A DNA stretch of 64,000 nt from Patescibacteria group bacterium (GTDB lineage Bacteria; Patescibacteriota; UBA1384; XYA2-FULL-43-10; 1-14-0-10-43-13): positions 21,561 through 85,560 of the forward strand of contig JBAZBD010000001.1 of NCBI GenBank assembly GCA_041671645.1, in the 5' to 3' direction. Shown here piece after piece: positions 22,621-63,848 of the stretch. Under the pieces are notes generated by a model that ran no database searches, was not told the DNA's origin, and was given only the letters and a program-made list of their open reading frames with translations. The first letter of the stretch is position 1. Every line of letters starts with the position of its first letter. A program made the position numbers and the translations under genes.

Positions 22621-23820
22621 TTATTTTAGAGCACTTTTATAGACGTCGAGAGTTTTCTCTGCCGTGTCGGACCAATTGTATTTGGCCGCTTGTTTCAGGC
22701 CTTTGGTTGAGAGCTCTCCCCTGAGCTTCTCGCCGGTGGAGACTCGTGCCATCGCCTTGGCCATATCTTCGATATCGTATGGATCGAAATACAGTGGAGC
22801 ATCGCCTAGAATTTCTGGCATACAGGAAACGTTGGATGAGAGTACTGGCGTGCCGCAAGCCATAGCTTGGAGCGGAGGGAGGCCGAAACCTTCATAGAGC
22901 GAAGGAATGATATAAGCCATCGCGCCAGCGAAACCAATCACCTGCTCCTCGGACTTCTCTGGCAAGAAACCAGTAGTAATAATGGAATTTGGAATTTGGA
23001 ATTTGGAATTTAGGTATTCTCGGACTCTTTTAATTTCTTCCATTACCTCTGGCTCTGCAGGATCGGGTTTGCCCATTAGGACTAGTTGAACAAAATTACT
23101 AGATTCCCGGGTCATGGCTTCGCCTGCCCGAGAATGACAATCAACGACAAACTTCTCATAGGCCTGGATTAGGCGTACGAGATTTTTGTGTTTTTTCCAC
23201 ATTCCGGCATAGAGAAAATAATCGCCGGTGATGCCAAATTTCTCCTTAAAATCTTTGACCTTCGAGGTCTGACCTTTGACCGATTCGTTATATTTCAAAT
23301 CGAAACCGAGATGAGTGACCGCTATCTTCTCTGGTTTGACGCTGAATCTTTTGACAATGTCCTGTTTGGTTGTTTCTGAGACAGAAATTATCTTGGCTGA
23401 GTCTCGAGCCGCTGATTGCATTACCTTCTTGAAGGCGAATTGCTTGATCGGATTAGCTTGGAAGAATTCGGTGAATTGGGTCAAGTCATGGATCGTGACG
23501 ACATAATTGCCCCGATACATGACCGGGTGATTGAACTGGGTAAAGTGCACGAGATCATACTTTTTATGATTCAGAAAAGTTAGGAGTTTGGTCTGCTCCG
23601 CCATGGAATAATGGGGGACGTCCAGAATCTTGGTTTGAAAGTTAGATGATTTTCCGAATGTTGGGTAGGCCTTCAATTTCTCTAGGCCCTGCGGACGGAT
23701 TAATAGTGTATACTCATTTTCCTTATCCAATTCCAAGACTCGGCTCAAAATCTCAAGGGTGTAGATAGTAAGTGAAGAGCCTATACCAATAAATCTGCCG
23801 TCAATTAGAATTTTTTTCAT
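22621..23820 (-). CDS. Glycosyltransferase family 4 (GT-B, GT1-type domain)
   Basis: C-terminal EX7E region (PSLYEGFGLPPLQAMACGTPVLSSNVSCMPEILGDA). The start overlaps the upstream Wzy_C gene by 20 nt. Contains the 7-nt tandem repeat at 22984-23011. Confidence 0.8.
   Translation of the reverse strand: MKKILIDGRFIGIGSSLTIYTLEILSRVLELDKENEYTLLIRPQGLEKLKAYPTFGKSSNFQTKILDVPHYSMAEQTKLLTFLNHKKYDLVHFTQFNHPVMYRGNYVVTIHDLTQFTEFFQANPIKQFAFKKVMQSAARDSAKIISVSETTKQDIVKRFSVKPEKIAVTHLGFDLKYNESVKGQTSKVKDFKEKFGITGDYFLYAGMWKKHKNLVRLIQAYEKFVVDCHSRAGEAMTRESSNFVQLVLMGKPDPAEPEVMEEIKRVREYLNSKFQIPNSIITTGFLPEKSEEQVIGFAGAMAYIIPSLYEGFGLPPLQAMACGTPVLSSNVSCMPEILGDAPLYFDPYDIEDMAKAMARVSTGEKLRGELSTKGLKQAAKYNWSDTAEKTLDVYKSALK
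22984..23011. repeat. Tandem heptanucleotide repeat (GGAATTT)x4 inside GT4 coding sequence
   Basis: Four perfect head-to-tail copies (22984-90, 22991-97, 22998-23004, 23005-11), encoding ..LNSKFQIPNSI.. on the minus strand. The unit length is not a multiple of 3. Confidence 0.9.
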
Positions 23821-25048
23821 CTGTTTCCTTTTTTACATTGGCCAAAGCGACTCCGATCAGGATAAACAAAGAGTAGCTCAAAGCTGGATTATCTGCAAAA
23901 GTATGAAGAAATATGGCGGTGATCGACACGGCCAACAGTGAGAAGAAAAGTCCCAGCTCTTTGGCACGAATAAGGGCAGTAGAGACGAGGTAAGAGATAT
24001 AGAGCCAAAGAGCCAAGCCGATGGCACCAATCTCAAGCAAAAGTTGGATATACCAAGATTCGGAAATTATACCTCCGTATTTGATGGCAATTGGCCCAGC
24101 TGTGCCAAGTCCATTGCCAAAGATCAAAATCGCCGGCTCTGCTAGCCTGTGCGTCACTTCATCAATTGAACTCTGGAGAGCGAAATTGTGGCCGGCCTGT
24201 GATTGGCCATGAGTCATGAATTGCGAGACCGTGGCGTTCGGCCAGAACCAGAGAGCCACAGCCAACGCCACGACAGCGAGACCGATAATTGAAATTATTT
24301 TCTTGACCCTCAAATTTGACTTGATGAAGATGAAGACAAAGAGTGAAACTATCAGCCCTATCAGCGCCGCTCGAGAAAAGGAGAGGAAGACGCCTAGGAA
24401 TAATACGATCGCCAACGAGATCGATAATTTCTTGGCACTGCCCTTGAAAATATTGTTGATGCAGATGAAGAAAGCCGGCAAAAGGTATGAGCCGAGCTGG
24501 ATCGCGCCAAGCAAGAAGGAGGCGCTCCGCTGCAAATCCATGTCGAAGCTGACTAGGAATGAGCCATATCCGTTCTCGACCCCGGGGATGATTATTCGCC
24601 AATAGTCAGCAGGGAGAAACCTCTCCAGTATCGCCCAAATCGCCACGGCCAGAGCGGTGCCAAGATAAACCTTGGTCATTTTTTTGATGTCAATAAGATC
24701 GCCCAGATTGGATAGTCCAAAGAGTAAAACGAGTGGCATGAGGGTAAATCGGAATCCCTCAATCCCCTGGCCCCAGCTTGGTGAGAAGAAAAAGATAGAG
24801 AAAGCGCCAAGGATAAGAATCGCCAGAATCGGCAATTGCCTATACAAATTAGCTTTTGCCTTGGGGAGGATCGAAAAGCGGACAAGCGCGATAAGAGCAA
24901 TTATCAAAATGATTGGCTCATAGAAATGAAGTGCCCAGAAGGAGACCCCGGAATCAATATTAATTGAGTCAAAATAAAAAGAGAGTAACTGCTGGAAGGG
25001 CAAGAGGATGATTAGAAAAGCAAGAAAAATATTAAGAGCTTTTTTCAT
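23801..25048 (-). CDS. O-antigen ligase/polymerase-like membrane protein (Wzy_C family), paralogue 1
   Basis: About 12 TM segments, an SRAALIGL loop motif and the distal WYIQLLLEIGAIG motif. Start set at MKKALNIFL (25048), overlapping the upstream stop by 17 nt. Confidence 0.7.
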   Translation of the reverse strand: MKKALNIFLAFLIILLPFQQLLSFYFDSINIDSGVSFWALHFYEPIILIIALIALVRFSILPKAKANLYRQLPILAILILGAFSIFFFSPSWGQGIEGFRFTLMPLVLLFGLSNLGDLIDIKKMTKVYLGTALAVAIWAILERFLPADYWRIIIPGVENGYGSFLVSFDMDLQRSASFLLGAIQLGSYLLPAFFICINNIFKGSAKKLSISLAIVLFLGVFLSFSRAALIGLIVSLFVFIFIKSNLRVKKIISIIGLAVVALAVALWFWPNATVSQFMTHGQSQAGHNFALQSSIDEVTHRLAEPAILIFGNGLGTAGPIAIKYGGIISESWYIQLLLEIGAIGLALWLYISYLVSTALIRAKELGLFFSLLAVSITAIFLHTFADNPALSYSLFILIGVALANVKKETDEKNSN

Positions 25049-26264
25049 TGTTTTGGCTTCCCTTCCCAAGCAAAAATGCTGAGGCGAAAACGAGCCAGAA
25101 GATGACCGAGAGATCGTTCTTGAAATAGGTCGTGTCAAATAAGCCATGGATCAGGATCGCGGACATAGCGGCGGCCACAAAATATTTGGTATTGCCGACC
25201 GATGCCCTCCAGGTATTTACGAAGAAGCTGATGATGAGGCCGAAAAGTGCAATGATGCCAACTAATCCCAAATTGAGCCAGAAAGCGAGGAAGAGATTGT
25301 GCGGGTGAATTGCGTATGGGAGGCCAAACTGTGTGAAGCTGGGATTGTTGAGGGCCACGACCGCCACCTTGTCCTGGAAGTCCCCCATGCCAATGCCAAA
25401 CAAATAATCTGAATTGATCAGTTGAAAACTGTAGCGATAAATTTCGGTACGCACAGTCTGAGTTGTCAGCAAACTGTCCGCAATTTGTGTCAGGAAGAAA
25501 ATTGCTATTGCAGATATGACGCCAAGGGCCGTCCACTTCAGAAACTTTCCTCTAATGAAGCTAAACGAGACAACCACAAGGCCAGAGAACAAAGCAATCA
25601 GCCCTCCGCTGGATTTACTCAAGACAAGCGCAGTTATTGCGATGAGGATTGAAACTATTTGAACGAAAAGAAGAAAATTGAATTTTCTCCAATTGACAGA
25701 GACAGCGGCGAGAAGCAGGACAGGAACGATGAACATCGTCAGATAATTTGGCGATTCGAAAGGACCAAAGAATCTTTGCTCACTAATATATTGGGCGAAA
25801 GAAGAATCGGTGCTTTGATAAAGCATCGGCGCAATCAGCCCTAGTCTTTGCAAGATAGCCCAGAGAGAAATCAGGAAGAGTGGGACGAAGAGAAGACGCA
25901 ATGATTTGATGAAGCCTTCACGGTCCTGGCCGAAGAGATTGATGATAGAGAGATAAAACATTATAGGGATTACAATCCAGCCCTTGGCGATTCCGAGAGA
26001 GACAGTGCTTGTTCCGTTGGCGATTAAGCTCAAGACAGCGGCAAAAACTACCAGATAAGCCCAGGGAGAGCCCCAGTTCCAGCTCTTCTTCTGTGATAAT
26101 TTCAAAATCAAAACCAAGAAGAAGAAAATGAGAATCAAAAGTTCAAGCGGATTGGTCCTGATCGAGCCGATCAAGGTAAAGCGAAAAATATAGGCCGGCA
26201 AAAAAATTAGTACAAGAGAATAGGCAGCAAAGGAAAACGACCTCAAATTTAATTTATTTTTCAT
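25032..26264 (-). CDS. O-antigen ligase/polymerase-like membrane protein (Wzy_C family), paralogue 2
   Basis: Polytopic protein with SKSSGGLIAL and IHPHNLFLAFWLNLGLVG motifs typical of Wzy_C proteins. 11-nt overlap with the upstream gene. Confidence 0.7.
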   Translation of the reverse strand: MKNKLNLRSFSFAAYSLVLIFLPAYIFRFTLIGSIRTNPLELLILIFFFLVLILKLSQKKSWNWGSPWAYLVVFAAVLSLIANGTSTVSLGIAKGWIVIPIMFYLSIINLFGQDREGFIKSLRLLFVPLFLISLWAILQRLGLIAPMLYQSTDSSFAQYISEQRFFGPFESPNYLTMFIVPVLLLAAVSVNWRKFNFLLFVQIVSILIAITALVLSKSSGGLIALFSGLVVVSFSFIRGKFLKWTALGVISAIAIFFLTQIADSLLTTQTVRTEIYRYSFQLINSDYLFGIGMGDFQDKVAVVALNNPSFTQFGLPYAIHPHNLFLAFWLNLGLVGIIALFGLIISFFVNTWRASVGNTKYFVAAAMSAILIHGLFDTTYFKNDLSVIFWLVFASAFLLGKGSQNNEKSS

Positions 26265-27576: not shown

Positions 27577-27692
27577 AGATTTATTATACCTTATTATTTA
27601 TATTTTTTTTGGTGGGGTAATTGCCTCATAAAAAGCAAATGCCCCCAGGCAAGGGCTTAAAAGTTGTATGAAGCTATGATAAAATTAGTTTG

Positions 27693-28871
27693 ATGATATT
27701 GTCAAATTGGGACAGAAAATTTGTGTCTGCTATTCTCTGCGTATCCGTGTTTTCTCTGACGCTCGCGGCAATGCAAAAAGTTCATGCTGAAATCAACAGC
27801 ACTGATTTTGTAAATAATAAATCCTACAACAATCTGATCTCCAACAGGGACTTTATCGATATCGGATCGATGACCCAGGACGAAATTCAAGCCTTCCTCA
27901 ATACTAAGGCCTCTTATCTAAAAGAATTTTCTGAGGGTGGCAAGAGCGCTGCACAAATTATTTATGAGGCGGCTCGAGGCAAGAAAAATACTGCCGCCAG
28001 AGATGGCGAGGATTACAGCACTTATCTAGGTGAAACATATAAGAATGTCACGGTCAACGAAAGCACCGGCACCGTGAGCCCCAAAGTACTGCTTGTGATG
28101 CTGCAAAAGGAACAAAGCTTGATCACTCGAACTGAACGCAACGATGACGCCCTAACGATCGCCATGGGCTACGGCTGCCCCGATTCGAGCAGTTGCTCCA
28201 GTCATTATTTCGGCTTTACTTTCCAAGTCGAATGGGCGGCTTGGCAATTGCGTTACAATTATGGACGCTCACAAGGTAAAGGAACCGATTTTCAGGTCGG
28301 CCAGACGATGACCGGGGTAGACGGACAATACGATGTCACATTTATGAACGAAGCCACAGCTTCGCTCTATCGCTATACTCCGCATGTTTTCGATAGCGCC
28401 TATAATTTTATGAACTTGTATGATAGTTGGTTCACTACCCACGCCGATAGTGAAAGTGACGACACGGCCAACTTCACCCTCAAAACTTATACTAACGCCC
28501 AAAAAGTTTCTGGCGGGAAAAGAAGCGACACTATCGCTTATCTGAACAACAGCCCCCTAAGCGACGGTGGGCTCGGATCTAGAAGTTGGAATATTAATTT
28601 TACCGATCTGGCTTACGGGACCAATAATTACACCTTAGAATACAAGGACGCGGGCGGTACTCTGGTCGATACAAAATCGATAGTGATCGAGATTCACAAA
28701 CCTGGCGATATCGACGGCAATAACGCCGTCGACGTCCAGGACCTTTCGATTTTCGCCGCCTACTGGTCGCAGATCAATCCAGAGGAGCCACTGGCCAATT
28801 TGACCGGTGAAGTCGGCCATGCCATTAACGTTCAGGATCTTTCAATCTTGGCGGGGTATTGGGGAAAGTAG
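27693..28871 (+). CDS. Secreted protein with C-terminal dockerin-like module
   Basis: N-terminal signal/anchor (FVSAILCVSVFSLTLAAMQKVHA), a conserved unknown central domain (LLVMLQKEQSLI..AMGYGCPD) and a C-terminal duplicated segment, GDIDGNNAVDVQDLSIFAAYW ... INVQDLSILAGYW. Confidence 0.6.
   Translation: MILSNWDRKFVSAILCVSVFSLTLAAMQKVHAEINSTDFVNNKSYNNLISNRDFIDIGSMTQDEIQAFLNTKASYLKEFSEGGKSAAQIIYEAARGKKNTAARDGEDYSTYLGETYKNVTVNESTGTVSPKVLLVMLQKEQSLITRTERNDDALTIAMGYGCPDSSSCSSHYFGFTFQVEWAAWQLRYNYGRSQGKGTDFQVGQTMTGVDGQYDVTFMNEATASLYRYTPHVFDSAYNFMNLYDSWFTTHADSESDDTANFTLKTYTNAQKVSGGKRSDTIAYLNNSPLSDGGLGSRSWNINFTDLAYGTNNYTLEYKDAGGTLVDTKSIVIEIHKPGDIDGNNAVDVQDLSIFAAYWSQINPEEPLANLTGEVGHAINVQDLSILAGYWGK
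28704..28868 (+). other. Dockerin-like module (two ~22-aa repeats, first with canonical Ca-binding loop)
   Basis: DIDGNNAVDVQD fits the D-x-D-x-N-x-x-x-D-x-x-D EF-hand-like loop of type I dockerins and is followed by an LSIFAAYW helix. The second repeat keeps the helix (VQDLSILAGYW) but has a degenerate loop. Confidence 0.55.
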
Positions 28872-28978: not shown

Positions 28979-30232
28979 ATGAAGAAAAATTTGTTAGTAT
29001 GCGTATCGGCGTTCTTGTCAGTTTTATTTTTGCCCACGCTTGCCATGGCGGCTGGTATTTCTGTCTCGTCTGGCAGTCTGAAATACCCAGGAGATGAAGC
29101 TACTGGCACCGTTACGGCTAGCGGCACTACTTTTAATGCCTTTTCGGGGACGATCGGGTCCGGCGGCGTGATCAAAATAGTGAGCTGTTCTCCTGGAGAT
29201 GCCCTCTGGGTAAACAAGCCAAACGGAGCTGGCAGTTTTGCCGGAGCTTTGACTGAGCCAGTTTCCTCATTTCGGATCGCTTCCTGCAAATTGAGAGCTA
29301 GTACGACAGGCAGTGGAACATTCTCTGTCTCTGGAGTATCTCTGGCCGACAAAGGACCTATCGTCGGGACTGATGGCGACAGCACATCCTTCAGCATCGT
29401 TCGCCGTCCGACGCCCCCAGGTGCTATCTCCATCTCTTCGGCGACTCACGCTGACCAAAATACGTCCTACGAAGCGAACACCGTCATCTTGTCCTGGGAT
29501 CGGCCAAGCAATATTACCGGTTTCTCCTATCTTCTCGATCAGACCGCTGACACTATTCCTGGCGCGAAGGTGACCTCCAATGAGATGACCGTCACTTATG
29601 CGGATCAAGCAATCGGGACATATTATTTCCATATCCGAGGACAGAACAATGATGGCTTTGGCGACACTTCGCATTTCAAAATTATGATCAAGGAGCCAGA
29701 TCCAAAGATTAAGGAAGAAATTGCCAAACCCTCCGATATTTCAATCTCAAAAACAAGCGACTTCAAAAATATTATAGCTGACGGCACCGCATCAGGTATC
29801 AAGATCTCAGGCCTGACACTGCCAGAGTATATGGCTAACATCAAATTGGAACCATCGCCAAAGATACCTGAGGGCAAATTGATGTCGGCCAAGGCTGACG
29901 CCAATGGCAGATTTGAATTCCTGATCGACTTTCCGATACCAGCAGGGTCGTATATTTTGACAGTTCAGGGTCAAAACAACAAAACTTTAACCCCAGTCTC
30001 CGATCCGATTCGCTTCGAGCTCTCTCAAAAAGAGGGTGGATCAATCCAAATTGTTACGGCAAGCGATGAAAATGTCCCCATTATTCCACCCAAGAAATGG
30101 CATGAAAAAGTAAATTGGTTGGCGGTTTCTATCGCAATAGCTTCGCTTTGGTTGATTTCCGCAGCCATAATTGTTACTTTGGCAGTAAGGAAAAAGATAA
30201 ATTTGAAGAAATTCACTAAATTGATTGGTTAG
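28979..30232 (+). CDS. Cell-surface protein: signal peptide, cohesin-like domain, conserved THxDQ/YxLD domain, Ig-like region, C-terminal TM anchor
   Basis: Signal peptide MKKNLLVCVSAFLSVLFLPTLAMA. Residues 25-141 have the cohesin-like pattern (SSGS..FNAF..LWV..P..F.G..TGSGTFSVSGVSLADKG), followed by ISSATHADQ...GFSYLLDQTADTIP...YYFHIRG. The C-terminal TM is WLAVSIAIASLWLISAAIIVTLAV. Confidence 0.55.
   Translation: MKKNLLVCVSAFLSVLFLPTLAMAAGISVSSGSLKYPGDEATGTVTASGTTFNAFSGTIGSGGVIKIVSCSPGDALWVNKPNGAGSFAGALTEPVSSFRIASCKLRASTTGSGTFSVSGVSLADKGPIVGTDGDSTSFSIVRRPTPPGAISISSATHADQNTSYEANTVILSWDRPSNITGFSYLLDQTADTIPGAKVTSNEMTVTYADQAIGTYYFHIRGQNNDGFGDTSHFKIMIKEPDPKIKEEIAKPSDISISKTSDFKNIIADGTASGIKISGLTLPEYMANIKLEPSPKIPEGKLMSAKADANGRFEFLIDFPIPAGSYILTVQGQNNKTLTPVSDPIRFELSQKEGGSIQIVTASDENVPIIPPKKWHEKVNWLAVSIAIASLWLISAAIIVTLAVRKKINLKKFTKLIG
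29051..29401 (+). other. Cohesin-like beta-sandwich module
   Basis: The pattern resembles the cohesin-domain surface proteins annotated in many uncultivated small-genome bacteria. This is recognised from memory and not HMM-verified. Confidence 0.45.
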
Positions 30233-32535: not shown

Positions 32536-32543
32536 ATTTAGTC

Positions 32544-40092: not shown

Positions 40093-40097
40093 TACAT

Positions 40098-40193: not shown

Positions 40194-40209
40194 ATTTGAT
40201 TGTAAATCC

Positions 40210-40238
40210 ACAATACCAATGCTTTGGTCGGCTGTCAA
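40210..40238 (-). promoter_or_regulatory. Candidate promoter of riboswitch-metK operon (TTGACA-17-TATTGT)
   Basis: Minus-strand TTGACA (40238-40233), a 17-nt spacer and TATTGT (40215-40210), about 20 nt upstream of the aptamer. Confidence 0.45.
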
Positions 40239-40306
40239 ATTCGTACATTGTAGATCGTGATTATATTTGTTATGTTAGTGATATATTTATTCAGGAAGAG
40301 AATGAA

Positions 40307-47437: not shown

Positions 47438-47449
47438 ACTATACTCTCG

Positions 47450-49878: not shown

Positions 49879-49880
49879 CC

Positions 49881-51528: not shown

Positions 51529-51551
51529 ATAAACCTCGGTCATGATTAATT

Positions 51552-53092: not shown

Positions 53093-53099
53093 TGCCACC

Positions 53100-53936: not shown

Positions 53937-53977
53937 ATGATCGACTCCGCAATCTTTCCATACAAGAGGCATCGACG

Positions 53978-54712: not shown

Positions 54713-55889
54713 AGTTTTCTATCAGCATCGCAATGCCCTGACCACCACCAATACAAAGCGAGGCTACCCCATATTTTAATTTTCTTCTTTTGAGTTCATG
54801 GATGAGACTGACCAAGATACGAGCGCCACTTGCGCCAATTGGGTGGCCGAGGGCGATAGCTCCACCGTTTACATTAACAATTTTTTCATCTATACCAAGT
54901 AGTTTCAAGGCAGCAACACTTTGGCTGGCAAAAGCCTCGTTTAGTTCCCAAAGATCGATATCTTCAATCTTGAAATTTGCCTTCTTGAGGCAAGCAACTA
55001 CTGCATAATAAACACCCATACCCATGATCTTGGGATCCAGACCAACAGAAGCATAACTCATAATCCTAGCCATGGGCTTGATTTTCTCATTTTGAACAAA
55101 TTTTTCAGAGGCAACGAAGATAACCGCAGCTCTATCATTTAAGGATGAGGAGTTGCCTGCTGTCACGGTGCCGTCTTTGTCGAATATGGGCTTCAACTTA
55201 GCAAGCGCCTCAAACGTTGTGTCGGCACGGGGTTGCTCGTCAATTTTGAACTCCGCCATTTCTTTCTTCTGCTTCACCAGAACAGGAACAATCTCATCTG
55301 ACAGACGGTTCTCCATCATGGCCGCAAGGGCTTTCTCATGACTTCTGAACGCAAATCGATCCTGGTCTTCCCTAGAAACTTTGTATTTCTTGGCAACATT
55401 TTCAGCTGTTACCCCCATATGTTCGCCGATCAAGGAACAAAATAATCCATCAGTAATCATACTATCTTTGATCGTCTGATCTCCAAGTTTTACTCCGAAC
55501 CGATGATCATCAATTAAATATGGGCTACGGCTCATGTTTTCCATCCCACCAGCGACAATCAAGTCTGCTTCTCTGAGCTCGATCGCCTGGCTGGCCAAGG
55601 TAATGCTTTTTAACCCTGATCCACAAACCTTGTTTACTGTGTAGGCCGGAACTGATTCAGGAATTCCTGCCTTGACGCTAGCAATTCTGGCCGGATTCTG
55701 CCCCAATCCAGCAGACAAAACATTGCCAAGAATAACTTCTCCGACTTTCTTTTCAATCCCTGGATTCTCGGCAATCAAATTTTTGATAACAGCCGCAGCA
55801 AGCTCTGGTGCTGAGCTACCCTGAAGACTACCACCGAATTTTCCAACGGCTGTTCTTTTGGCTGAGACGATATACACATTTTCTTTCAT
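54705..55889 (-). CDS. Acetyl-CoA C-acetyltransferase (thiolase II)
   Basis: [12 protein letters not shown] (active-site Cys), [18 protein letters not shown] and [15 protein letters not shown]; 394 aa; GAGGAA RBS. Confidence 0.92.
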
Positions 55890-55910
55890 AACATATTCCT
55901 CGGCTCCTAG

Positions 55911-57062
55911 TCAGCTGACCAGTATTTTTATTTTTTGGATAACAAAGTTTACTTCAACATCGGTCATTTTTGGATACAATGGTAAGCTCAAACACTGCTC
56001 GTAATACGCTTCTGCAACAGGATAATCCCCAACCTTATACCCGTATGTGTCTTGATAATAAGGCTGCAAGTGAGCAGGAATATAATGAACCTGCGAGCCA
56101 ACATTGTTTTTCCTTAATTCTTCCATCACCTCTTTGCGCGTCTTACCAATTTTAGCAAAATCAATTTTTAATACGTAAAGATGAAATGCAGAGCCGACGC
56201 CTGGCTTTTCATAAGGGGTAACGACATTTGGAAGTTTAGCGAACGCTTTATTGTATTTATCAACGATTTCCCGACGGCGTGCAGCAAATTTGTCAAGTTT
56301 CCTAAGCTGACTCAAACCAAGCGCAGCTTGTATGTCAGTAATACGATAATTGAAGCCAAGATCTTGCATTTCATAGTACCAAGGACCGGGATTTTGGCTT
56401 AATATTGCTGGATCTTTGGTGATACCATGAGATCGAAGCAGGAGCAACTGTTTGTATATTTTTTCATCATTTGTAGTGATAGCCCCGCCCTCTCCAGTAG
56501 TAATCGTCTTAACCGGATGGAACGAGAAGGTCGTCAGATCGGAATATTTGTTTGACCCAACCTTACTGCCATCAGCAAACGAAGATCCGATAGAGTGAGC
56601 GGCGTCCTCAATTACATAAATGCCTTTACTCTTCGCAAAATCGTATATTTCCTCCAAGTCGGCGACCTGGCCAGCAAAATCGACGGCCACAATTACCTTG
56701 GTTTTGTCGGTCACTCTCTTCTTGATTTCCACTAGGTCAATATTGCAGGTGTCCTCCCTGATATCCGCGAAAGCAGGGGTTAGCCCGCAATAAGCAAGGC
56801 AGTTGGCTGAAGCAACAAATGTATTGGGTGTGGTGATCCCCTCACCGTTCCCTAAATTTAATGCTAAAACGGCCAAATGGAGGGCGGCCGTGCCGTTGGA
56901 GACGGCGACACAATGTTTTGCGCCAGTATATTTGCAAATTGCCTGCTCAAACTCCTCTATTTTTGGACCTTGTGTCAAGAAGTCGCTTTTGAGCGTTTGG
57001 ACAACTTCAGCGATATCGTCGTCATCAAGCCACTGCTTGCCATATGCAATAAAACTATTCAT
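55911..57062 (-). CDS. pseC: UDP-4-amino-4,6-dideoxy-N-acetyl-beta-L-altrosamine transaminase-like (DegT family)
   Basis: The N-terminus IAYGKQWLDDDDIAEV is typical of PseC. It also has HCVAVSNGTAALHLA and FSFHPVKTITTGEGG (catalytic Lys). The ATG at 57062 lies one base after the pseB TAA. Confidence 0.85.
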   Translation of the reverse strand: MNSFIAYGKQWLDDDDIAEVVQTLKSDFLTQGPKIEEFEQAICKYTGAKHCVAVSNGTAALHLAVLALNLGNGEGITTPNTFVASANCLAYCGLTPAFADIREDTCNIDLVEIKKRVTDKTKVIVAVDFAGQVADLEEIYDFAKSKGIYVIEDAAHSIGSSFADGSKVGSNKYSDLTTFSFHPVKTITTGEGGAITTNDEKIYKQLLLLRSHGITKDPAILSQNPGPWYYEMQDLGFNYRITDIQAALGLSQLRKLDKFAARRREIVDKYNKAFAKLPNVVTPYEKPGVGSAFHLYVLKIDFAKIGKTRKEVMEELRKNNVGSQVHYIPAHLQPYYQDTYGYKVGDYPVAEAYYEQCLSLPLYPKMTDVEVNFVIQKIKILVS

Positions 57063-57063
57063 T

Positions 57064-58062
57064 TTAATACACAATCTCTATTGATTTCAAAAATTCTGTA
57101 ATGCCTTTTTGATCCAACCACTCATCGTTTAAATCTGAGGAATAGCGGAATCCCTCCATCACTTTCTTGCTCCCTGGTTTGCAATGAATTTTTGGGTTCC
57201 ACCAATCAAAATCTGGATAGATAATGTAGTGATCGCCGTAGTCATGGGTTAATCTGGAGTCTTCCTCAGTGATCATGACTTCATGAAGTTTCTCCCCTTC
57301 CCTGATGCCAATTTCTTTAAGCTTGACCTCTTTGTGCATCGCTTTGGCCAAATCAGTAATTTTGACAGACGGGATCTTGGACACATAAATCTCGCCGCCT
57401 TTGGCTTCTTTGATCGCCTTAAATACAAGATCGACGCCTTGATTGAGAGTTATTAAAAATCGGGTCATACGGAAATCAGTGATCGGAATTATTCTTTGGC
57501 CAGAATCTAACAACTGTTTGAAGAAAGGTATGACTGAGCCGCGGCTACCGGCAACGTTGCCATATCGGACTACAGAAAAAACTGGGCCCTTGCCCCCAGA
57601 GTAAGCGTTGGCGGAAACAAACAATCTATCAGAGACTAACTTGGTGGCCCCATAAAGGTTGACTGGATTGACAGCTTTATCGGTAGAAAGAGCAACTACT
57701 TTCTCGACCCCGCAGTCCAAAGCCGCATCGATTACATTCTCTGCGCCGTGAATATTGGTTTTGATGGCCTCCATCGGGTTGTATTCGGCTATCGGCACAT
57801 GCTTCATAGCGGCCGCATGGATCACAATATCTACTCCATTGAGGGCCCTCTTCAGACGATCTTTGTCACGGACATCTCCGATAAAGTAACGCAGCTGACT
57901 GTCATATTCGGCGAACTGTCGGCGCATCATGTATTGCTTATACTCGTCACGAGAATAAATGATGATCTTTTTTGGTTTATATTCAGACAAAATCCGCTTA
58001 GTAAATTGCTTACCAAATGAGCCGGTCCCACCCGTGATTAGAATTGTTTTATTATTTAGCAT
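57064..58062 (-). CDS. pseB: UDP-N-acetylglucosamine 4,6-dehydratase (inverting), PseB/FlaA1-like
   Basis: Near-collinear with H. pylori FlaA1 as I recall it: NKTILITGGTGSFGK, FIGDVRD, HAAAMKHVPIAEYNP, STDKAVNPVNLYGATK, VRYGNVAGSRGSVIPFF, GIREGEKLHE. Confidence 0.92.
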   Translation of the reverse strand: MLNNKTILITGGTGSFGKQFTKRILSEYKPKKIIIYSRDEYKQYMMRRQFAEYDSQLRYFIGDVRDKDRLKRALNGVDIVIHAAAMKHVPIAEYNPMEAIKTNIHGAENVIDAALDCGVEKVVALSTDKAVNPVNLYGATKLVSDRLFVSANAYSGGKGPVFSVVRYGNVAGSRGSVIPFFKQLLDSGQRIIPITDFRMTRFLITLNQGVDLVFKAIKEAKGGEIYVSKIPSVKITDLAKAMHKEVKLKEIGIREGEKLHEVMITEEDSRLTHDYGDHYIIYPDFDWWNPKIHCKPGSKKVMEGFRYSSDLNDEWLDQKGITEFLKSIEIVY

Positions 58063-58110: not shown

Positions 58111-59403
58111 TCACTCGCTCATTACTTTCTTTATATAGAAACGCTGAATCGCTATCGTGATACAATAGTTTGCTATCAGAGTCCCAATCACTAAAGACAC
58201 GGAGAAGAAGCTAAACCTCACAGCCACTATATAGAGGCAAATCGCTAAGAAATTTACTCCATATGTAGTTAACAGACATTTCCTATAATATTGTTCCGAA
58301 AAATCAAGAATGATTGTAGCATATATCGATTGGAACAGAAAGACAACTGAGAGCACGGAGAAGCCAATAACATAAAATAAACTGACCGGGTATTGCCGCC
58401 CAAATATTGATAACATTATTAGAGTCAAGCAAGATGCAAGAACAAACAGCGGCAGGAACCCAATACAAAAGATTTTATCAATTTTTTTAATAAATGCTTT
58501 GTCTTTTACCCGAACTGTAGCAGGGAAAAATACGTTGTTAAACAATTGCCCAGCTTGTGCGATCAAGGTAAAAGAAGAAAAATAATAGGCACTGTATATG
58601 CCAAACGCTGTGAATCCAAGATATTTCGCAATTATTATTTTGTCAGCGGATAAGAAAATCGTGCCAAGCAGCGCGCTTATGAGAAACCATTTCCCCTCCC
58701 TCAAAACAGCCAATGAATCAGTAAAGTTACTTTTGCCAAAATATCTTTTAAGATAGGATAGATAATAAATCGATATTGCTATAGCCCCAGCGACTAGAAC
58801 TGAAACGAATCCCGCAAATGTGTGATCTTTTAGGACAAAAAACACCGCGATAAATAGAACGGCAACGATAATCACCTCGAATATCTTAGCCTTAGCCTGA
58901 ACTTTGAACTCCTCCAGCCCTCTAATGGACGAATCAAATAAAGTTTTAGCTGAGAAAACAATTGTGTAGCATATGAGCATCAGAAAAAAGGATTTTCCTC
59001 CAGACATTATCCGGCTCACAAAAGGATAAACTATTGGCGAGAGGACCACCAACCCGACTAGCACCAGAAAAACAATGTTGCTTATTGATGAGATAACCCG
59101 TTTTCTAGCTTTAACGGAAGGGTCTCTCGCGATGCTTCTGATAAGTACTGTATCCAGACCCAAAAAAATGAAAATAATTAAATACTGATTTGCAACCAGC
59201 ATGAGATTGTATTTTCCATACTCGATCGGTCCCATGAAGCGCCCAGCCAGGGTGGTAATCAGCATGAGAATTGGTAAGGCTCCGATGCCAGACAAAAAGG
59301 ACCACGATAGGCGAGTTAAGAATGACCGCATCTCATCCCCCATCTCATGACCGAAGACCTTGAGGTGGACTTTTTCGACAAATTGTACTAATCTTTTTTT
59401 CAT
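58111..59403 (-). CDS. Wzx-like polysaccharide flippase (MOP superfamily)
   Basis: 430 aa with about 12 TM segments and an N-terminal pattern (GALPILMLITTLAGRFMGPIEYGKY) typical of Wzx proteins. First gene of the minus-strand operon. Confidence 0.65.
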   Translation of the reverse strand: MKKRLVQFVEKVHLKVFGHEMGDEMRSFLTRLSWSFLSGIGALPILMLITTLAGRFMGPIEYGKYNLMLVANQYLIIFIFLGLDTVLIRSIARDPSVKARKRVISSISNIVFLVLVGLVVLSPIVYPFVSRIMSGGKSFFLMLICYTIVFSAKTLFDSSIRGLEEFKVQAKAKIFEVIIVAVLFIAVFFVLKDHTFAGFVSVLVAGAIAISIYYLSYLKRYFGKSNFTDSLAVLREGKWFLISALLGTIFLSADKIIIAKYLGFTAFGIYSAYYFSSFTLIAQAGQLFNNVFFPATVRVKDKAFIKKIDKIFCIGFLPLFVLASCLTLIMLSIFGRQYPVSLFYVIGFSVLSVVFLFQSIYATIILDFSEQYYRKCLLTTYGVNFLAICLYIVAVRFSFFSVSLVIGTLIANYCITIAIQRFYIKKVMSE

Positions 59404-59488: not shown

Positions 59489-60379
59489 ATGAAAGGTATA
59501 ATTTTAGCAGGTGGGAGTGGGACGAGACTTTATCCGTTGACCATGGCGATGAGCAAGCAGATGTTGCCGATCTATGACAAGCCGATGATCTTCTACCCAC
59601 TATCAATCCTGATGTTGGCTGGGATCAAGGATGTTTTGATAATTTCAACACCGCACGATCTGCCAAATTTCAAGAAATTGTTGGGGGACGGATCGGATTA
59701 CGGAATCAAATTGAGCTACGAAGAGCAGCCTTCTCCCGACGGCCTGGCTCAGGCTTTCATCATCGGTGAGAAGTTTATTGGTAGCGACGACGTCGCGATG
59801 GTCCTGGGAGACAATATTTTCTTTGGCAACGGGCTGACCGAGATGTTGAGAGACGCCGCCAGCAACAAAAGCGGAGCGACTGTCTTTGGCTATTATGTCA
59901 ATGACCCGGAGCGATTCGGCGTTGTCGAGTTCGACGAGAACAATAGAGCGATCTCGCTGGTCGAGAAACCAACCGAGCCCAAGTCCAACTACGCCGTGAC
60001 CGGCCTCTATTTCTATGACAACCGCGTCGTCGAATTCGCCAAGAATTTGAAACCGAGTGATCGAGGCGAGTTGGAAATCACCGATTTGAACAAGGTATAT
60101 TTGGAAAAGGGTGATCTCAACGTCAAATTGCTCGGCCGAGGATTTGCCTGGCTCGACACTGGAACGGTGGATTCGATGTCGCAAGCCAGCGAATTTATCC
60201 GCATTGTTGAAGAGCGCCAGAATATCAAAGTTGCCGCACTCGAAGAAATTGCCTTCAACCAGGGTTGGATTTCGAAGGATCAATTGCTCGTATCAGCAAA
60301 TAGGTATGGTAAGTCTCCATATGGCCAATATTTAAAGAAGGTGGCTGAGGGCAAAATTAAAATCCTGGAGTCGCTATGA
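59489..60379 (+). CDS. rfbA: Glucose-1-phosphate thymidylyltransferase
   Basis: [36 protein letters not shown]..., LGDNIF, the ERFGVVEFD motif and EITD. Confidence 0.95.
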
Positions 60380-60939
60380 ACGTGACCGAAACAGATATTC
60401 CCGGAGTCCTAATCCTCGAGCCCAAGGCTTTTGGTGACGATCGTGGCTGGTTTATGGAGACTTACAGTAAATCTAAGTTTGAGGAGGCCGGGATCAAGGG
60501 TGAATTTGTTCAGGACAACCATAGTTTTAGTGCACAAAAAGGCACTCTTCGCGGAATTCATTTCCAGAAGAATCCGATGGCACAAGCCAAAATAGTCCGC
60601 TGTACCAGAGGAGCCGTCCTAGACGTTGCGGTTGATCTGAGGAAAGACTCGCCCACATTCAAGCAATGGGTTTCTGTCGAGCTCACGGCCGAAAACAAGA
60701 AAATGTTTTACATTCCCAGAGGCTTTGGCCATGGTTTCCTCACACTCGAAGAGAATACAGAATTTCAGTACAAGGTAGATAATTACTATTCGCCAGAAAA
60801 TGATAGGAGCATCCGTTTCGACGACCCAGAAATCTCTATCGACTGGCAAGTGGCAGAGCCGATCGTGTCAGAAAAGGATCGACAAGCTCCTCTGCTCAAA
60901 GATAGCGACGTTGATTTTGCATATCAGGAAAATCAATAA
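60376..60939 (+). CDS. rfbC: dTDP-4-dehydrorhamnose 3,5-epimerase
   Basis: [50 protein letters not shown] and PRGFGHGF; ATGA overlap with rfbA. Confidence 0.93.
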
Positions 60940-61478
60940 TGGCTGGCTGGAAAAAAGTTGATAGCAAAACCGCCTTTGAGTGTCCTTATTACTCGATTTC
61001 TGAGGATAATGTGATCCGTCCAGACGGCGCACCAGGCAAATACTTCCATGTCGTGACCAAAGGCTCGGTTTCTATCATCGCAGAAGACACGGACGAGAAG
61101 ATTTATATGGTCAGCCAGCATCGCTACACGGCAGACAATGAATTGTCCACTGAAGTAGTAGCTGGCGGTATCGAGAAAAATGAAGATCCTTTGTCAGCAG
61201 CCAAGCGAGAGCTTGTGGAGGAAGCTGGAATCGCTGCTAAAGAGTGGATATATTTGGGGAACTTTCGGCCATTCAATGGTATTTCCTCCGAGATTGATTA
61301 CGTCTACTTGGCCCGAGATTTGACCCAAGGGCTTAGTAATCCTGATTCGACTGAAGATATTACGCTATCGAAAAAAAGTCTGGCCGAGGTAAAAGAATTG
61401 ATATTGAAAAATGAGATCACTGATGGCCAAGCCATCGCCGCATTGATGAAATATATTATATATAAGGAGAATGTATGA
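60939..61478 (+). CDS. NUDIX hydrolase (nucleotide-sugar/ADP-ribose pyrophosphatase-like)
   Basis: The Nudix box GGIEKNEDPLSAAKRELVEEAGI fits GX5EX7REUXEEXGU. Translationally coupled between rfbC and rfbB. Confidence 0.75.
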   Translation: MAGWKKVDSKTAFECPYYSISEDNVIRPDGAPGKYFHVVTKGSVSIIAEDTDEKIYMVSQHRYTADNELSTEVVAGGIEKNEDPLSAAKRELVEEAGIAAKEWIYLGNFRPFNGISSEIDYVYLARDLTQGLSNPDSTEDITLSKKSLAEVKELILKNEITDGQAIAALMKYIIYKENV

Positions 61479-62500
61479 AAATTTTGGTAACTGGGGGCGC
61501 TGGATTTATTGGTTCAAACTTTATTCTCTACATGATGAGCAAGTATCCCGACTACGAAATAGTTAACTTGGATAATCTGACCTACGCAGGAAATCTAGAA
61601 ACTCTTGCCAGTGTCGAGAACAATCCAAATTATACTTTTGTCCATGGTGACATTTGCGATCGCGAAACGGTCGTCAAGGCGATGGCTGGCTGTGATATTG
61701 TCGTCCATTTCGCCGCAGAATCCCATGTCGATCGTTCGATCACTGGGCCAGCGATTTTCGTCAAGACAAATGTTGTCGGGACTCAAGTCTTGCTCGATGT
61801 TGCCAAGGACAACAATATCAAGCGATTCCATCACGTCTCGACCGATGAAGTCTTCGGTGCCCTCGACTTGGACAAGCCAGAAGAGAGATTTTCCGAATCA
61901 ACTCCATATTGTCCGCACTCCCCATATTCTGCTTCCAAGGCCGGTAGCGACCACCTAGTTCGTGCTTATCATGATACTTATGGACTTGATGTGACTATCT
62001 CCAACTGCACCAACAATTATGGCCCGTATCAATTTCCAGAGAAGGTTATTCCCCTCTTCATCACCAACGCCCTTCAAGACAAGGCCCTCCCGATCTATGG
62101 CAAAGGCCTGGCTATCAGAGATTATATCTATGTCACCGACCACTGCGCTGGCATCGATCTGATCGTTCACAATGGAAAAGCCGGCGAGACCTACTGCCTC
62201 GGCGGTCATGCTGAGAAAAATGGCCTGGAAGTAGCTGACACAATATTGAGAACAGTCGGCAAGCCAGAGACACTCAAGACTCACGTCGAGGATCGCAAGG
62301 GTCATGATATGAGATATGCCATTGACGACACCAAAATCCGCAACGAGCTTGGCTACAAGCCTTCCGTAACTTTTGACGAGGGCATCCAGAAAACTATTGA
62401 TTGGTATAAGGAAAACAAAACTTGGTGGGAACGGATCATCTCCAAGGAATATCTCGACACCAATAGAGAGCAATTAAACAATTCAAAGGTTGGGGAATAA
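61475..62500 (+). CDS. rfbB: dTDP-glucose 4,6-dehydratase
   Basis: MKILVTGGAGFIGSNF, HFAAESHVDRS, STDEVFG and YSASKAGSDHLVRAY. Confidence 0.95.
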   Translation: MKILVTGGAGFIGSNFILYMMSKYPDYEIVNLDNLTYAGNLETLASVENNPNYTFVHGDICDRETVVKAMAGCDIVVHFAAESHVDRSITGPAIFVKTNVVGTQVLLDVAKDNNIKRFHHVSTDEVFGALDLDKPEERFSESTPYCPHSPYSASKAGSDHLVRAYHDTYGLDVTISNCTNNYGPYQFPEKVIPLFITNALQDKALPIYGKGLAIRDYIYVTDHCAGIDLIVHNGKAGETYCLGGHAEKNGLEVADTILRTVGKPETLKTHVEDRKGHDMRYAIDDTKIRNELGYKPSVTFDEGIQKTIDWYKENKTWWERIISKEYLDTNREQLNNSKVGE

Positions 62501-63354
62501 TGAAAATATTAGTCACTGGCGCCAAAGGACAACTTGGCAAGAAAATCATCGATTTACTAAGCGATAAATACGAATTGGTATTGACCGACTCGGCAGAAAT
62601 GGATATCACAGACAAGGCGAAAGTCCTCGAAGTTGTTGGCGCGGAAAAGCCAGATTTCATCTTGCACGCCGCCGCTTACACTCAGGTAGACAAGGCCGAG
62701 GAAACGGAAGAGATTTGCCGCAAAGTGAATTCACTGGGCTCGGAAAATATTGCAAAAGCAGGTAAAGAATTTGGCTCGACCGTGATTTACATCTCGACTG
62801 ATTATGTCTTTGACGGCAAGAAAGATTCGCCTTATACCGAAGAAGACGCAACCAATCCTCTCTCAGTATATGGGAAGACGAAACTCGAGGGCGAAGAAGC
62901 CGTTAAAAATAATTGTGATAAATACTATATTATCCGCTCCGCTTGGATCTTTGGCGAATTGCCAGAGGGCCATCCAGGAACCAATTTCGTCGAGACGATG
63001 CTCAGACTTGCCAAAGATCGAGATGAATTAAGCATCGTCAGCGATCAGATCGGCTCGCCTACTTACACTGGCGATTTGGTCGAGGCAATTGAGAAAATAA
63101 TCGAAATCAAACCCGCCTACGGCGTTTATCTCTTTTCTGGCGCTGGTGCCGCTTCATGGTACGACTTCGCAGTTGAGATTTTCAAGCAAACCAATACCAA
63201 AATTGAGGTCAAGCCGATCACAAGCGACCAATATCCCCAAAAAGCGACGAGACCAGCCTATTCATACATGGATAAAACTAAAGTCGAGACAGCACTCTCT
63301 TCCAAAGTTCGGCCATGGCAAGAAATGTTGGCTGACTATCTCAAAAGAAGATAA
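62500..63354 (+). CDS. rfbD: dTDP-4-dehydrorhamnose reductase
   Basis: MKILVTGAKGQLG, HAAAYTQVDKAE, STDYVFDG, YGKTKLEGE and GSPTYTGDL. Confidence 0.9.
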   Translation: MKILVTGAKGQLGKKIIDLLSDKYELVLTDSAEMDITDKAKVLEVVGAEKPDFILHAAAYTQVDKAEETEEICRKVNSLGSENIAKAGKEFGSTVIYISTDYVFDGKKDSPYTEEDATNPLSVYGKTKLEGEEAVKNNCDKYYIIRSAWIFGELPEGHPGTNFVETMLRLAKDRDELSIVSDQIGSPTYTGDLVEAIEKIIEIKPAYGVYLFSGAGAASWYDFAVEIFKQTNTKIEVKPITSDQYPQKATRPAYSYMDKTKVETALSSKVRPWQEMLADYLKRR

Positions 63355-63398: not shown

Positions 63399-63407
63399 TA
63401 GATATTC

Positions 63408-63848
63408 CTATCTCTTGTATGTCCAGAGCTTGTTGATGAAGAAATTCCAGATGATCGCTGAGCCAGAGGCGAAGACAAGTGGCATGATATCGTGTTTACC
63501 CATCAGGACAGGATTGTAGGAGCCAAGAGTCGCTCTGAATACTAGCCAATTGATGCCCCAGCCGATCAGGCTGACAACAAAGAATTTGACCAGGATCATG
63601 CTTTTGGCGTTAGCTTCGCCCGATTGAGCAATTTTTTGATATTCCTTCTTGAAGGTCCAAATCGTGTTGAAAAGGTATGAATTGGCGACCGCGACCAGGA
63701 ATGAAATCGCCTTGGCGATGCTCTTGTCCCCCTCTAGCACCGAAGCCGTCAAAAGATAGTAGACAACCCAGTCGACACCGGTGTTGACGACGCCAACTAC
63801 ACCAAACTTTATAAATTGAACGAGATTCTCATTTTTCGATTTATTCAT
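63408..63848 (-). CDS. GtrA-family membrane protein
   Basis: 146 aa with 4 TM segments. N-terminal FIKFGVVGVVNTGVDWVVYYLL and C-terminal NFFINKLWTYK are typical of GtrA-like proteins. Confidence 0.75.
   Translation of the reverse strand: MNKSKNENLVQFIKFGVVGVVNTGVDWVVYYLLTASVLEGDKSIAKAISFLVAVANSYLFNTIWTFKKEYQKIAQSGEANAKSMILVKFFVVSLIGWGINWLVFRATLGSYNPVLMGKHDIMPLVFASGSAIIWNFFINKLWTYKR

Follow-up and report, generated by a model that had tools for sequence, protein, structure and literature searches.

A predicted cell-surface glycan biosynthesis region with conserved blocks and exchangeable cassettes in a Patescibacteria genome

Results and Discussion

Gene content of the region

The stretch of DNA analysed here, called the window, is 64,000 nucleotides long and comes from contig JBAZBD010000001.1 of a Patescibacteria group bacterium (assembly GCA_041671645.1). 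Its part between 22,621 and 63,848 bp is probably a cell-surface glycan biosynthesis region of a Patescibacteria (candidate phyla radiation, CPR) organism, in which conserved blocks flank exchangeable cassettes and from which an S-adenosylmethionine (SAM)-cycle unit stands apart. Non-overlapping open reading frames (ORFs) of at least 90 amino acids (aa) were called, which gave 56 in the whole window and 40 within 22,621-63,848, compared with the 39 coding sequences counted in this part by a first-pass annotation made from the sequence alone. All 56 window proteins were scanned with Pfam, and 30 of them, every one from inside the locus, with NCBIfam. The density of glycan genes between 22.6 and 63.8 kb was far above chance expectation. 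A glycan or surface role had family- or fold-level support for about 30 of the 40 ORFs, three are SAM-cycle genes, and seven were placed by context alone (unknown proteins of 153, 322 and 302 aa, a thiolase, a short-chain dehydrogenase/reductase [SDR], a NUDIX hydrolase and a GFO oxidoreductase). The earlier assignment of 36 of 39 coding sequences to glycan or surface functions therefore held in the main part and was contextual for these seven. The ~41-kb locus occupies about 4.7% of the 867,751-bp contig of this metagenome-assembled genome (MAG), which agrees with the compact genome that had been assumed. The 497-aa and 684-aa window proteins were 100% identical to NCBI proteins WC227_00280 and WC227_00315, respectively, from a Patescibacteria MAG.

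Four assembly routes had been proposed for the locus, namely Wzx/Wzy-type assembly, decoration by GT-C enzymes using undecaprenyl-phosphate (Und-P)-linked sugars, CMP-nonulosonate addition and dTDP-rhamnose supply, and all four were borne out at the annotation or fold level. The three Wzy_C proteins and two Wzx flippases had Pfam matches, two of the three Wzy_C proteins scoring above the gathering score. The two GT-C-like proteins had no Pfam match, and their predicted structures resembled GT-C enzymes almost exclusively. The GtrA-like gene matched Pfam GtrA, and the proposed GtrB-like gene, the GT2 at 40136, was nearest to PpgS, DPM synthase, ArnC and GtrB. PseB, PseC, PseI and PseF of the Pse-type operon, as well as RmlA, RmlC, RmlB and RmlD of the rml operon, all exceeded the NCBIfam equivalog cut-offs. 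Where eight GT2/GT4 genes had been counted, we found seven (four GT2 and three GT4); the eighth may be the 377-aa BFO_1060-/polysialyltransferase-like protein encoded at 48745-49878.

These assignments can be arranged into a working model. Cytoplasmic GT2 and GT4 enzymes would build an oligosaccharide on a polyprenyl carrier from dTDP-L-rhamnose and CMP-pseudaminic acid, the latter being made by PseB, PseC, PseI and PseF together with non-orthologous candidates for the PseG and PseH steps. The BFO_1060-like transferase would add the nonulosonate, and the thiolase and a FabG/PhaB-like reductase would make 3-hydroxybutyryl-CoA for the pseudaminic acid. The Wzx flippases would export the lipid-linked units, and the Wzy_C trio and an STT3/AglB-like GT-C would polymerise these units or pass them to the final acceptor. 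A GacI/GacJ/GacL-type module (the GT2 at 40136, the DUF2304 protein, the 684-aa GT-C and possibly GtrA) would decorate the polymer outside the membrane, with a polyprenyl-monophosphate sugar as the donor. The order of the steps, the identities of donors and acceptors and the 3-hydroxybutyryl decoration are what we infer. The features of the region, including predicted transmembrane (TM) segments and structures predicted with AlphaFold2 (AF2), are as follows.

21287..22498, plus strand: lipoprotein-like surface protein, 403 aa (lipobox-like LLMSGC; no Pfam match)
22621..23820, minus strand: GT4 glycosyltransferase (Pfam Glycos_transf_1, 4.4e-21)
23801-25147, 25032-26264 and 26254-27576, minus strand: three Wzy_C-family membrane proteins in tandem (Pfam Wzy_C)
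27690..28871, plus strand: secreted or anchored protein, 393 aa, with a dockerin-like duplicated C-terminal segment (motif level)
28979..30232, plus strand: FN3/Ig-domain protein, 417 aa, with signal peptide and C-terminal TM anchor, the "cohesin" of the first-pass annotation (weak fn3 and Ig_J matches)
30233..31660, plus strand: Wzx-type flippase 1 (Pfam Polysacc_synt 4.2e-22; 11 predicted TM segments)
31663-32535, minus strand: GT2 of variable block 1 (Pfam)
32544-33545, minus strand: GT2 of variable block 1 (Pfam)
33587-34684, plus strand: GT4 of variable block 1 (Pfam)
34686..35147, minus strand: 153-aa protein with three predicted TM segments, downstream of the STT3-like gene (no family match)
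35104..36597, minus strand: STT3/AglB-like GT-C membrane glycosyltransferase, 497 aa, with a small C-terminal domain (phmmer, AF2, Foldseek)
36629-37939, minus strand: ahcY (Pfam)
37908-38807, minus strand: pfkB-family kinase (Pfam), most like a nucleoside kinase (NCBIfam)
38807-40039, minus strand: metK (Pfam)
40097..40194, minus strand: SAM-I riboswitch in the metK leader, then a hairpin and T-run (Rfam RF00162)
40136..40996, plus strand: GT2, putative polyprenyl-phosphate sugar synthase, GacI/PpgS/GtrB-like (NCBIfam, PDB)
40996..41343, plus strand: DUF2304 small membrane protein of the GacJ/Rv3632 family (Pfam, 74.4 bits vs 25.5)
41340..42353, plus strand: conserved GT2 with one TM segment (Pfam; 48-57% identity in all relatives examined)
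42356..44410, plus strand: GT-C-fold membrane glycosyltransferase, 684 aa, putative GacL-like (AF2 and Foldseek)
44418-45515, minus strand: GT4 (Pfam)
45461-46429, minus strand: conserved 322-aa unknown with a C-terminal TM segment (no family or PDB match)
46484..50834, minus strand: FemAB/GNAT-like acyltransferase, second DegT aminotransferase, 377-aa protein and GFO/IDH/MocA oxidoreductase (Pfam, NCBIfam)
48745-49878, minus strand: the 377-aa protein, nonulosonate-transferase-like (partial BFO_1060 and polysialyltransferase match)
50821..58062, minus strand: pse operon, from 58062 down to 50821 PseB, PseC, thiolase, FabG/PhaB-like SDR, 302-aa unknown, GNAT, PseI and PseF
58111..59403, minus strand: Wzx-type flippase 2 (Pfam Polysacc_synt 1.9e-22; 11 predicted TM segments)
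59489..63354, plus strand: rmlA, rmlC, NUDIX hydrolase, rmlB and rmlD for dTDP-L-rhamnose supply (NCBIfam; NUDIX by Pfam)
63408..63848, minus strand: GtrA-family small membrane protein at the right edge of the locus (Pfam GtrA_DPMS_TM, 70.1 bits)

Conserved core and variable cassettes in related loci

Comparison of the locus among relatives had been suggested as a way to delimit its conserved and variable parts. Related loci (denoted by L and a number) were reached through homologues of the 684-aa, 497-aa and 417-aa proteins and compared by tblastn, and a conserved core and two variable parts were found. The synteny of the core was kept in L087, L088, L091, L093, L094, L101 and L103. The GT4, Wzy_C, 393-aa, 417-aa and Wzx genes recurred in L094 and L103, with three Wzy_C genes in L103 and two seen in L094, and L087 and L088 also had the surface-protein and Wzx part, with a Wzy_C gene where the DNA compared ends. 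The order GT2-DUF2304-GT2 followed by a 684-aa-type GT-C was present in all five loci reached via the 684-aa protein, with the GT2s 48-60% identical, and these genes were found, whole or in part, in seven of the eight metagenome loci reached via the 497-aa protein. The STT3-like gene adjoined core blocks in 8/8 metagenome loci of at least 5 kb.

The earlier suggestion that the locus is variable was upheld in both close and distant relatives. In L103, a close relative, the left flank is 78-90% identical at the amino acid level and AhcY, PfkB and MetK on the right are 94-97% identical, and the place of 30.2-36.6 kb (Wzx, GT2, GT2, GT4, 153-aa and STT3-like genes) is taken by a non-homologous block of a GT4, a Wzx (43% identity) and one GT2. 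Beyond the 684-aa GT-C, the sugar cassette differs in the more distant relatives, which carry other nonulosonate cassettes; the NeuB homologues of L085, L087 and L088 are 33-59% identical, and their cassettes carry methyltransferases, ATP-grasp, WbqC/PIG-L or aminotransferase genes. No nonulosonate genes were found in L089. Judged by gene content, the locus has the architecture known from O-antigen, capsule and cell-wall-polysaccharide loci, in which conserved flanks enclose variable cassettes. Its variable surface part may begin near 21.3 kb, at the slot of the 403-aa lipoprotein-like gene, which in L103 holds a 528-aa unknown, a FemAB protein and a 200-aa protein, with the upstream intergenic DNA aligning at 89%.

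A proposed GacI/GacJ/GacL-type decoration module

The genes between 40.1 and 44.4 kb resemble a three-component system for sugar decoration, and both the DUF2304 partner adjoining the GT2 and the GT-C transferase were present. In Streptococcus pyogenes, the GT2 GacI, bound and stimulated by the DUF2304 protein GacJ, produces GlcNAc-P-undecaprenol, from which the GT-C GacL transfers the sugar to polyrhamnose; the mycobacterial PpgS/Rv3632 proteins act like GacI/GacJ (10.1101/180810). The PDB matches of the window GT2 at 40136 were DPM synthase (2.4e-16), ArnC and GtrB. The TTG start of this ORF at 40136 overlaps the SAM-I riboswitch, so the true start is probably near 40196; the gene call on the Logan contig is 266 aa. 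The AF2 model of the 684-aa protein had a predicted local distance difference test (pLDDT) score of 86.1, and its significant Foldseek matches were only GT-C enzymes (PglB 4.8e-5, STT3 and DPY19), with TMq of 0.33-0.41, weaker than for the 497-aa protein. Pfam found no domain in any of 29 homologues of the 684-aa protein, and a PDB sequence search with the 684-, 302- and 322-aa proteins returned nothing usable. By analogy with the streptococcal and mycobacterial systems, an Und-P-sugar feeding a GT-C decoration step is well founded.

The 497-aa STT3/AglB-like protein and the possibility of protein glycosylation

The 497-aa protein of variable block 1 was modelled with AF2 at a pLDDT of 93.3, and its top 12 Foldseek matches were all STT3 or PglB (~1e-8). 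Its nearest solved folds were STT3B, AglB and PglB and included an AglB-S2-like C-terminal domain; in the phmmer search of PDB, residues 366-431 aligned to the start of the STT3/AglB C-terminal domain (E 7.6e-4). Thus, both a GT-C fold closest to STT3 and an AglB-like C-terminal domain were found. The family is rare, with 66 representatives among 1.84 billion proteins in an exhaustive HMMER search, and in all 34 aligned homologues G55, D57, Y78, P79, H187, P188, R320 and W417 are unchanged. The invariant Asp lies in the first external loop, within GDDPAxH. At the position of the sequon-reading WWDYG motif the protein reads YWRYG; only W417 of this region is invariant in the 34 homologues, and the WWD positions are not conserved. 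None of the 34 members matched Pfam STT3 or any other Pfam family, and the family profile against STT3 in PDB gave a non-significant E of 0.29. On the strength of the models, the protein is a miniature STT3/AglB-fold GT-C that fails the sequence-level tests for an oligosaccharyltransferase.

These properties bear on an alternative in which the locus serves mainly protein glycosylation, with the STT3/AglB-like GT-C and/or PglL-like Wzy_C proteins transferring a Wzx-flipped, pseudaminic acid (Pse)-capped oligosaccharide en bloc to surface proteins such as the FN3 membrane protein, the dockerin-like protein, pilins or an S-layer. We regard this as rather unlikely. It is favoured by the nearest folds of the 497-aa protein with their AglB-S2-like C-terminal domain, by the synteny of its gene with two conserved surface proteins in L091, L093, L094 and L095, and by P0002, a homologue on another contig that is followed by a 120-aa gene and adjoins a nonulosonate cluster. 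The resemblance of the 377-aa protein to an enzyme of Tannerella protein O-glycosylation and the lack of an LCP ligase for wall attachment in the locus point the same way. However, the degenerate WWDYG motif, the absence of Pfam STT3 matches and the non-significant profile comparison speak against it, and the close relative L103 keeps the surface proteins yet has no STT3-like gene. Furthermore, membership of Wzy_C cannot tell a polymerase from a ligase or an oligosaccharyltransferase. The other glycosyltransferases of variable block 1 (31663-34684) had partial NCBIfam matches to HpsN and TuaG/EpsE.

The left block: GT4 repeat, Wzy_C trio and surface proteins

The three Wzy_C proteins scored 21.7, 55.4 and 64.5 bits against a gathering score of 31.7, the first (23801-25147) falling below the threshold, and each has 10-11 predicted TM segments. 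Recent duplication of these genes was rejected, as the proteins have no mutual BLASTP similarity (E<1e-3). In L103 every one of the three is matched by a separate orthologue (79-86%), and two have matches in L094 (36-39%), which, from these comparisons, implies long-standing distinct roles. They could be polymerase, ligase or O-oligosaccharyltransferase-type enzymes.

The two genes that follow had been read as a dockerin/cohesin pair, which was not supported beyond the motif level for the dockerin. The C-terminal end of the 393-aa protein reads KPGDIDGNNAVDVQDLSIFAAYW...INVQDLSILAGYW. Its sole PDB matches were type I dockerins at E 0.6-0.9, no Pfam match was found even at E<5, and the L087 orthologue gave a faint Dockerin_1 match; the protein is conserved at 40-90% in L087, L091, L094 and L103. 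The identity of the 417-aa protein as a cohesin was rejected, because neither Pfam nor PDB gave a cohesin match and a cohesin Pfam domain was absent from all 108 homologues. It matched FN3/Ig only, and this region matched the lambda J Ig region in PDB (E 4.5e-5). The 108 homologues, from Patescibacteria and Berkelbacteria, are named "fibronectin type III domain-containing". A Pfam search at E<5 with nine unknown window proteins gave nothing convincing.

The AT-rich core and heptamer repeat taken earlier as signs of variability both exist, the core as a GC minimum of 0.376 at 42-44 kb, but the repeat lies in the left-hand GT4 and thus outside the core. A perfect in-frame (AATTCCA)x4 occupies 22983-23011, in the inter-domain linker of this GT4 (TRF and sequence), and the orthologue in L103 (78% identity) has an unrelated 8-nt unit, also four times, at the same site (about 4064-4245 of L103). 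On sequence grounds, this linker seems prone to short tandem repeats. The 7-nt unit is not a multiple of three and four copies is a low number; an on/off switch is possible. An exact-protein look-up of the GT4 for repeat-number variants returned no record. A degenerate AATTCCA-like repeat (4.3 copies) was also seen at 40040-40069, between the riboswitch terminator and the metK start codon, in the orientation relative to its gene opposite to that of the GT4 copy.

The nonulosonate cassette

Of the six Pse enzymes, four are firmly identified, with NCBIfam scores against cut-offs of 537.6/407.75 for PseB, 500.2/423.5 for PseC, 486.5/340.25 for PseI and 292.8/205.7 for PseF. The position of PseH is taken by the GNAT and that of PseG by the 302-aa protein (53100-54008), which had a weak DUF218 match only. 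DUF218(-like) proteins also adjoin the cytidylyltransferase in the nonulosonate cassettes of L085 (20290-21060), L087 (20626-21156) and L088 (19883-20602), again at the expected site of PseG. Proteins of this kind may stand in for PseG as non-orthologous enzymes of the UDP-sugar hydrolase step.

Downstream of pseC, the operon encodes a thiolase of the acetyl-CoA C-acyltransferase family (TIGR01930, 477 bits) and, beside it, a FabG/acetoacetyl-CoA-reductase-like SDR. For an organism poor in lipid metabolism, the simplest reading of the two genes would be a dedicated supply of 3-hydroxybutyryl-CoA. Their presence inside the pse operon therefore probably points to 7-N-(3-hydroxybutanoyl) pseudaminic acid; the acyl group would go onto the C4 amine, which becomes N7 of Pse, giving a Pse5Ac7(3-hydroxybutanoyl)-type sugar. 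Acinetobacter makes Pse5Ac7(3-hydroxybutanoyl) with psaABCGHF modules (PMC9676051).

The candidate nonulosonate transferase of 377 aa partially matches the BFO_1060 family, which comprises the Tannerella Pse/Leg transferases of protein O-glycosylation (PMC5420450). It has an HP motif at residue 250, in the polysialyltransferase HP-motif region, and a D/E-D/E-G motif was not found in it. Few proteins of the locus are conserved as well as the 322-aa protein, which has 51-60% identity to its counterparts in L085, L087 and L088 and lies in every case between the 684-aa-type GT-C and the nonulosonate genes.

The SAM-cycle unit

The full RF00162 model was matched in the metK leader, 58 nt before the start codon, at 49.9 bits (gathering score 44.4; E 1.9e-8). 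Since metK-pfkB-ahcY has its own SAM-I riboswitch and terminator, the unit is predicted to be feedback-regulated by SAM on its own. Its recent insertion was rejected, as the three genes are in the same position in L103 and metK also lies within the locus in L088 and L094 (78-79% identity). AhcY is highly conserved, with cross-phylum matches at 61-74% identity in the contig scan, and in the Magasanikiibacteriota locus L002 it is flanked by Wzx- and Wzy-like ORFs. The best reading is an independently regulated housekeeping island that forms a conserved flank between variable cassettes.

The first-pass annotation had left two explanations for this operon, coincidence or a supply for methylated sugars, while noting that no methyltransferase was evident. 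None was detected among the window proteins, and the methylated-sugar idea is weakened for this genome. For the lineage it may still apply, since metK recurs inside the locus in L088, L094 and L103 and cassettes of relatives carry methyltransferases; a tie to sugar methylation is plausible for those relatives.

The right end of the locus

RmlA, RmlB, RmlC and RmlD scored 492.9, 472.4, 239.8 and 325.7 bits, respectively. Past GtrA and beyond the window come a PhdYeFM-domain gene and then a DedA/VTT gene (L082 1233-1859, ~1 kb out), which places the end of the locus near 63.8 kb. A part in the recycling of the undecaprenyl-phosphate carrier is ascribed to DedA proteins. As a separate observation, the NUDIX gene (60939-61478) is inserted between rmlC and rmlB, and a 27%-identical NUDIX gene adjoins AhcY in L002 (11385-11933).

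Functional unity and continuity of the region

The predicted glycan region was then weighed against the observations that tell against it as a single and complete pathway. None of the 56 window proteins matched Bac_transf, Glycos_transf_4 or Wzz, the families of initiating phosphoglycosyltransferases and chain-length regulators, and no LCP ligase is encoded in the window locus; likewise, no initiating phosphoglycosyltransferase (Bac_transf or MraY-like), LCP ligase or Wzz was listed for the loci of the relatives. With initiator, ligase and Wzz all missing from the locus, the pathway is incomplete as seen, and the earlier description of one locus was not supported in the functional sense. Within the proposed routes, no NCBIfam match to PseG was found in the cassette, the GNAT at 52592-53134 scored 16.9 against the PseH cut-off of 93.1, the 377-aa protein reached 60.6 bits against the BFO_1060 cut-off of 200, and the GT2 at 40136 stayed below the equivalog cut-offs (PpgS 9e-47, 159 bits against 370; AglJ 1e-33). 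For seven genes no function could be assigned. The strand changes at least nine times along the locus, which also holds one or more autonomous regulatory units, and its action as one functional unit is suggested by synteny. In addition, the tetranucleotide correlation with the housekeeping part was 0.75-0.85 over 40-60 kb compared with 0.87-0.94.

Several of these features would also be expected if independent units (Wzx/Wzy, GacIJL-type, nonulosonate and generic rml) and housekeeping genes merely lay side by side in a recombination-prone region, an account that we hold to be possible but less probable. The strand switches, the SAM operon with its own riboswitch and terminator, the independent exchange of the cassettes, and the presence of two Wzx and three mutually dissimilar Wzy_C proteins favour it, as does L089, where GT2-DUF2304-GT2-GT-C adjoins recA-recX with neither a Wzy/Wzx block nor nonulosonate genes. 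On the other side, the order GT4, Wzy_C, 393 aa, 417 aa, Wzx...(STT3-like)...metK...GT2-DUF2304-GT-C is found in L094, L087 and L088 at 36-56% protein identity, and such recurrence in distant relatives speaks for selective maintenance of the linkage.

The composition of the region could further be explained by chimeric assembly or by recent insertion of foreign DNA from an organism with a large genome, and continuity of coverage and tetranucleotides across 40-47 kb had been named as the point to check. The GC minimum at 42-44 kb, the lower tetranucleotide correlation over 40-60 kb and a branch of the Logan assembly graph at 40116-40143 are the observations in its favour. However, a 26.5-kb Logan contig from an independent assembler (SRR18595301) was 100% identical over window positions 40116-64000 and extended 2.65 kb past the window, and a second Logan contig, also 100% identical, spanned 37670-40143; the two overlap by 28 nt within the metK leader and follow the window path exactly. 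In L087, L091, L094 and L102 the genes on both sides of the 40-kb junction remain syntenic, the L089 module is flanked by housekeeping recA, recX and an HTH_25 gene, and the homologues of locus-specific proteins are named Patescibacteria or Berkelbacteria. Because of the independent contig and the synteny of relatives across the junction, chimeric assembly of the region is unlikely, and the explanation as a whole, insertion included, is very improbable. The compositional check thus did show a drop over 40-60 kb, one that is typical of exchanged glycan cassettes; it is compatible with acquired cassettes and does not prove a common function.

Relation to known systems

Patescibacteria live attached to other microbes, and to our knowledge almost nothing is known of their surface chemistry, so that the role in host or partner interaction suggested by the first-pass annotation is hypothetical; among the available papers we found nothing relevant on Patescibacteria or CPR with pseudaminic acid, nonulosonic acids or an oligosaccharyltransferase. 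The predicted glycan region shares with the gac locus of streptococcal and lactococcal rhamnose cell-wall polysaccharides the dTDP-rhamnose supply, a GT2 followed by DUF2304 (GacJ family), a GT-C transferase, a Wzx/GtrA-type flippase candidate, a monoderm-type envelope and a variable side-chain part beside a conserved part. In contrast to gac, it has Wzx and Wzy_C instead of ABC-transporter rhamnan export, lacks a GacO/TagO-type initiator and an LCP ligase, and adds the nonulosonate cassette, an extra conserved GT2 and the second, STT3-like GT-C; at the sequence level, its 684-aa GT-C resembles no Pfam family. The O-antigen and K loci of Gram-negative bacteria, such as the Acinetobacter baumannii K loci whose psaABCGHF modules give Pse5Ac7(R-3-hydroxybutanoyl), are alike in conserved flanks, a variable centre, Wzx/Wzy-type logic and modular sugar cassettes including Pse, and they offer a precedent for N-7 3-hydroxybutanoyl Pse (PMC9676051). 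The window locus differs from the A. baumannii K loci in its CPR host with a ~0.87-Mb contig, in the thiolase and ketoreductase inside the pse operon, in the unrecognisable equivalents of PseG and PseH, and in having no Wza/Wzb/Wzc or initiating transferase.

STT3, AglB and PglB (GT66) have in common with the 497-aa protein the invariant Asp in the first external loop, whereas they are roughly 590-970 aa long, carry WWDYG in place of YWRYG, and differ from this rare family in their match to Pfam STT3. The O-glycosylation system of Tannerella forsythia (Tanf_01245/BFO_1060) is similar in the partial family and HP-motif match of the transferase and in its position next to CMP-Pse synthesis genes; it differs in that the window protein is far below the family cut-off and without the D/E-D/E-G motif, and the rest of the Tannerella system is absent here. 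All the machineries are thus of known kinds, and the advance is one of distribution and detail, not of principle. What is new is how these machineries are organised in a CPR genome, together with the predicted acyl-pseudaminic acid and two undescribed GT-C families that Pfam lacks, including the mini-STT3 without WWD.

The locus predicts a surface glycan containing rhamnose and acyl-pseudaminic acid, a GacIJL-type side-chain system and two new GT-C families, and it indicates that a conserved-flank, variable-cassette glycan region is kept even in ~0.9-Mb genomes. In pathogens, this architecture drives serotype and phage-receptor diversity. A more far-reaching reading, to which we give little credence, is an undescribed surface-glycosylation system of an ABY1/Berkelbacteria-like clade, centred on the two GT-C families. 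In it, the WWD-less mini-STT3 would be a new oligosaccharyltransferase or ligase that moves Wzx-flipped, acyl-Pse-capped glycans onto the FN3 and dockerin-like proteins; if true, cassette exchange, and possibly switching of the GT4 repeat, would give antigenic or host-range variation in an obligate episymbiont.

Genes outside the locus

The part of the window from 1 to 21 kb is occupied by housekeeping genes, namely PPDK, RecX, RecA, FtsK, RNase J, UDG, a P-type ATPase, VanW and an H+-pyrophosphatase. Within it, positions 1789-3195 encode two tandem HD-domain (YfbR-like 5'-deoxynucleotidase) paralogues that are 40% identical, the second being fused to DUF1653.

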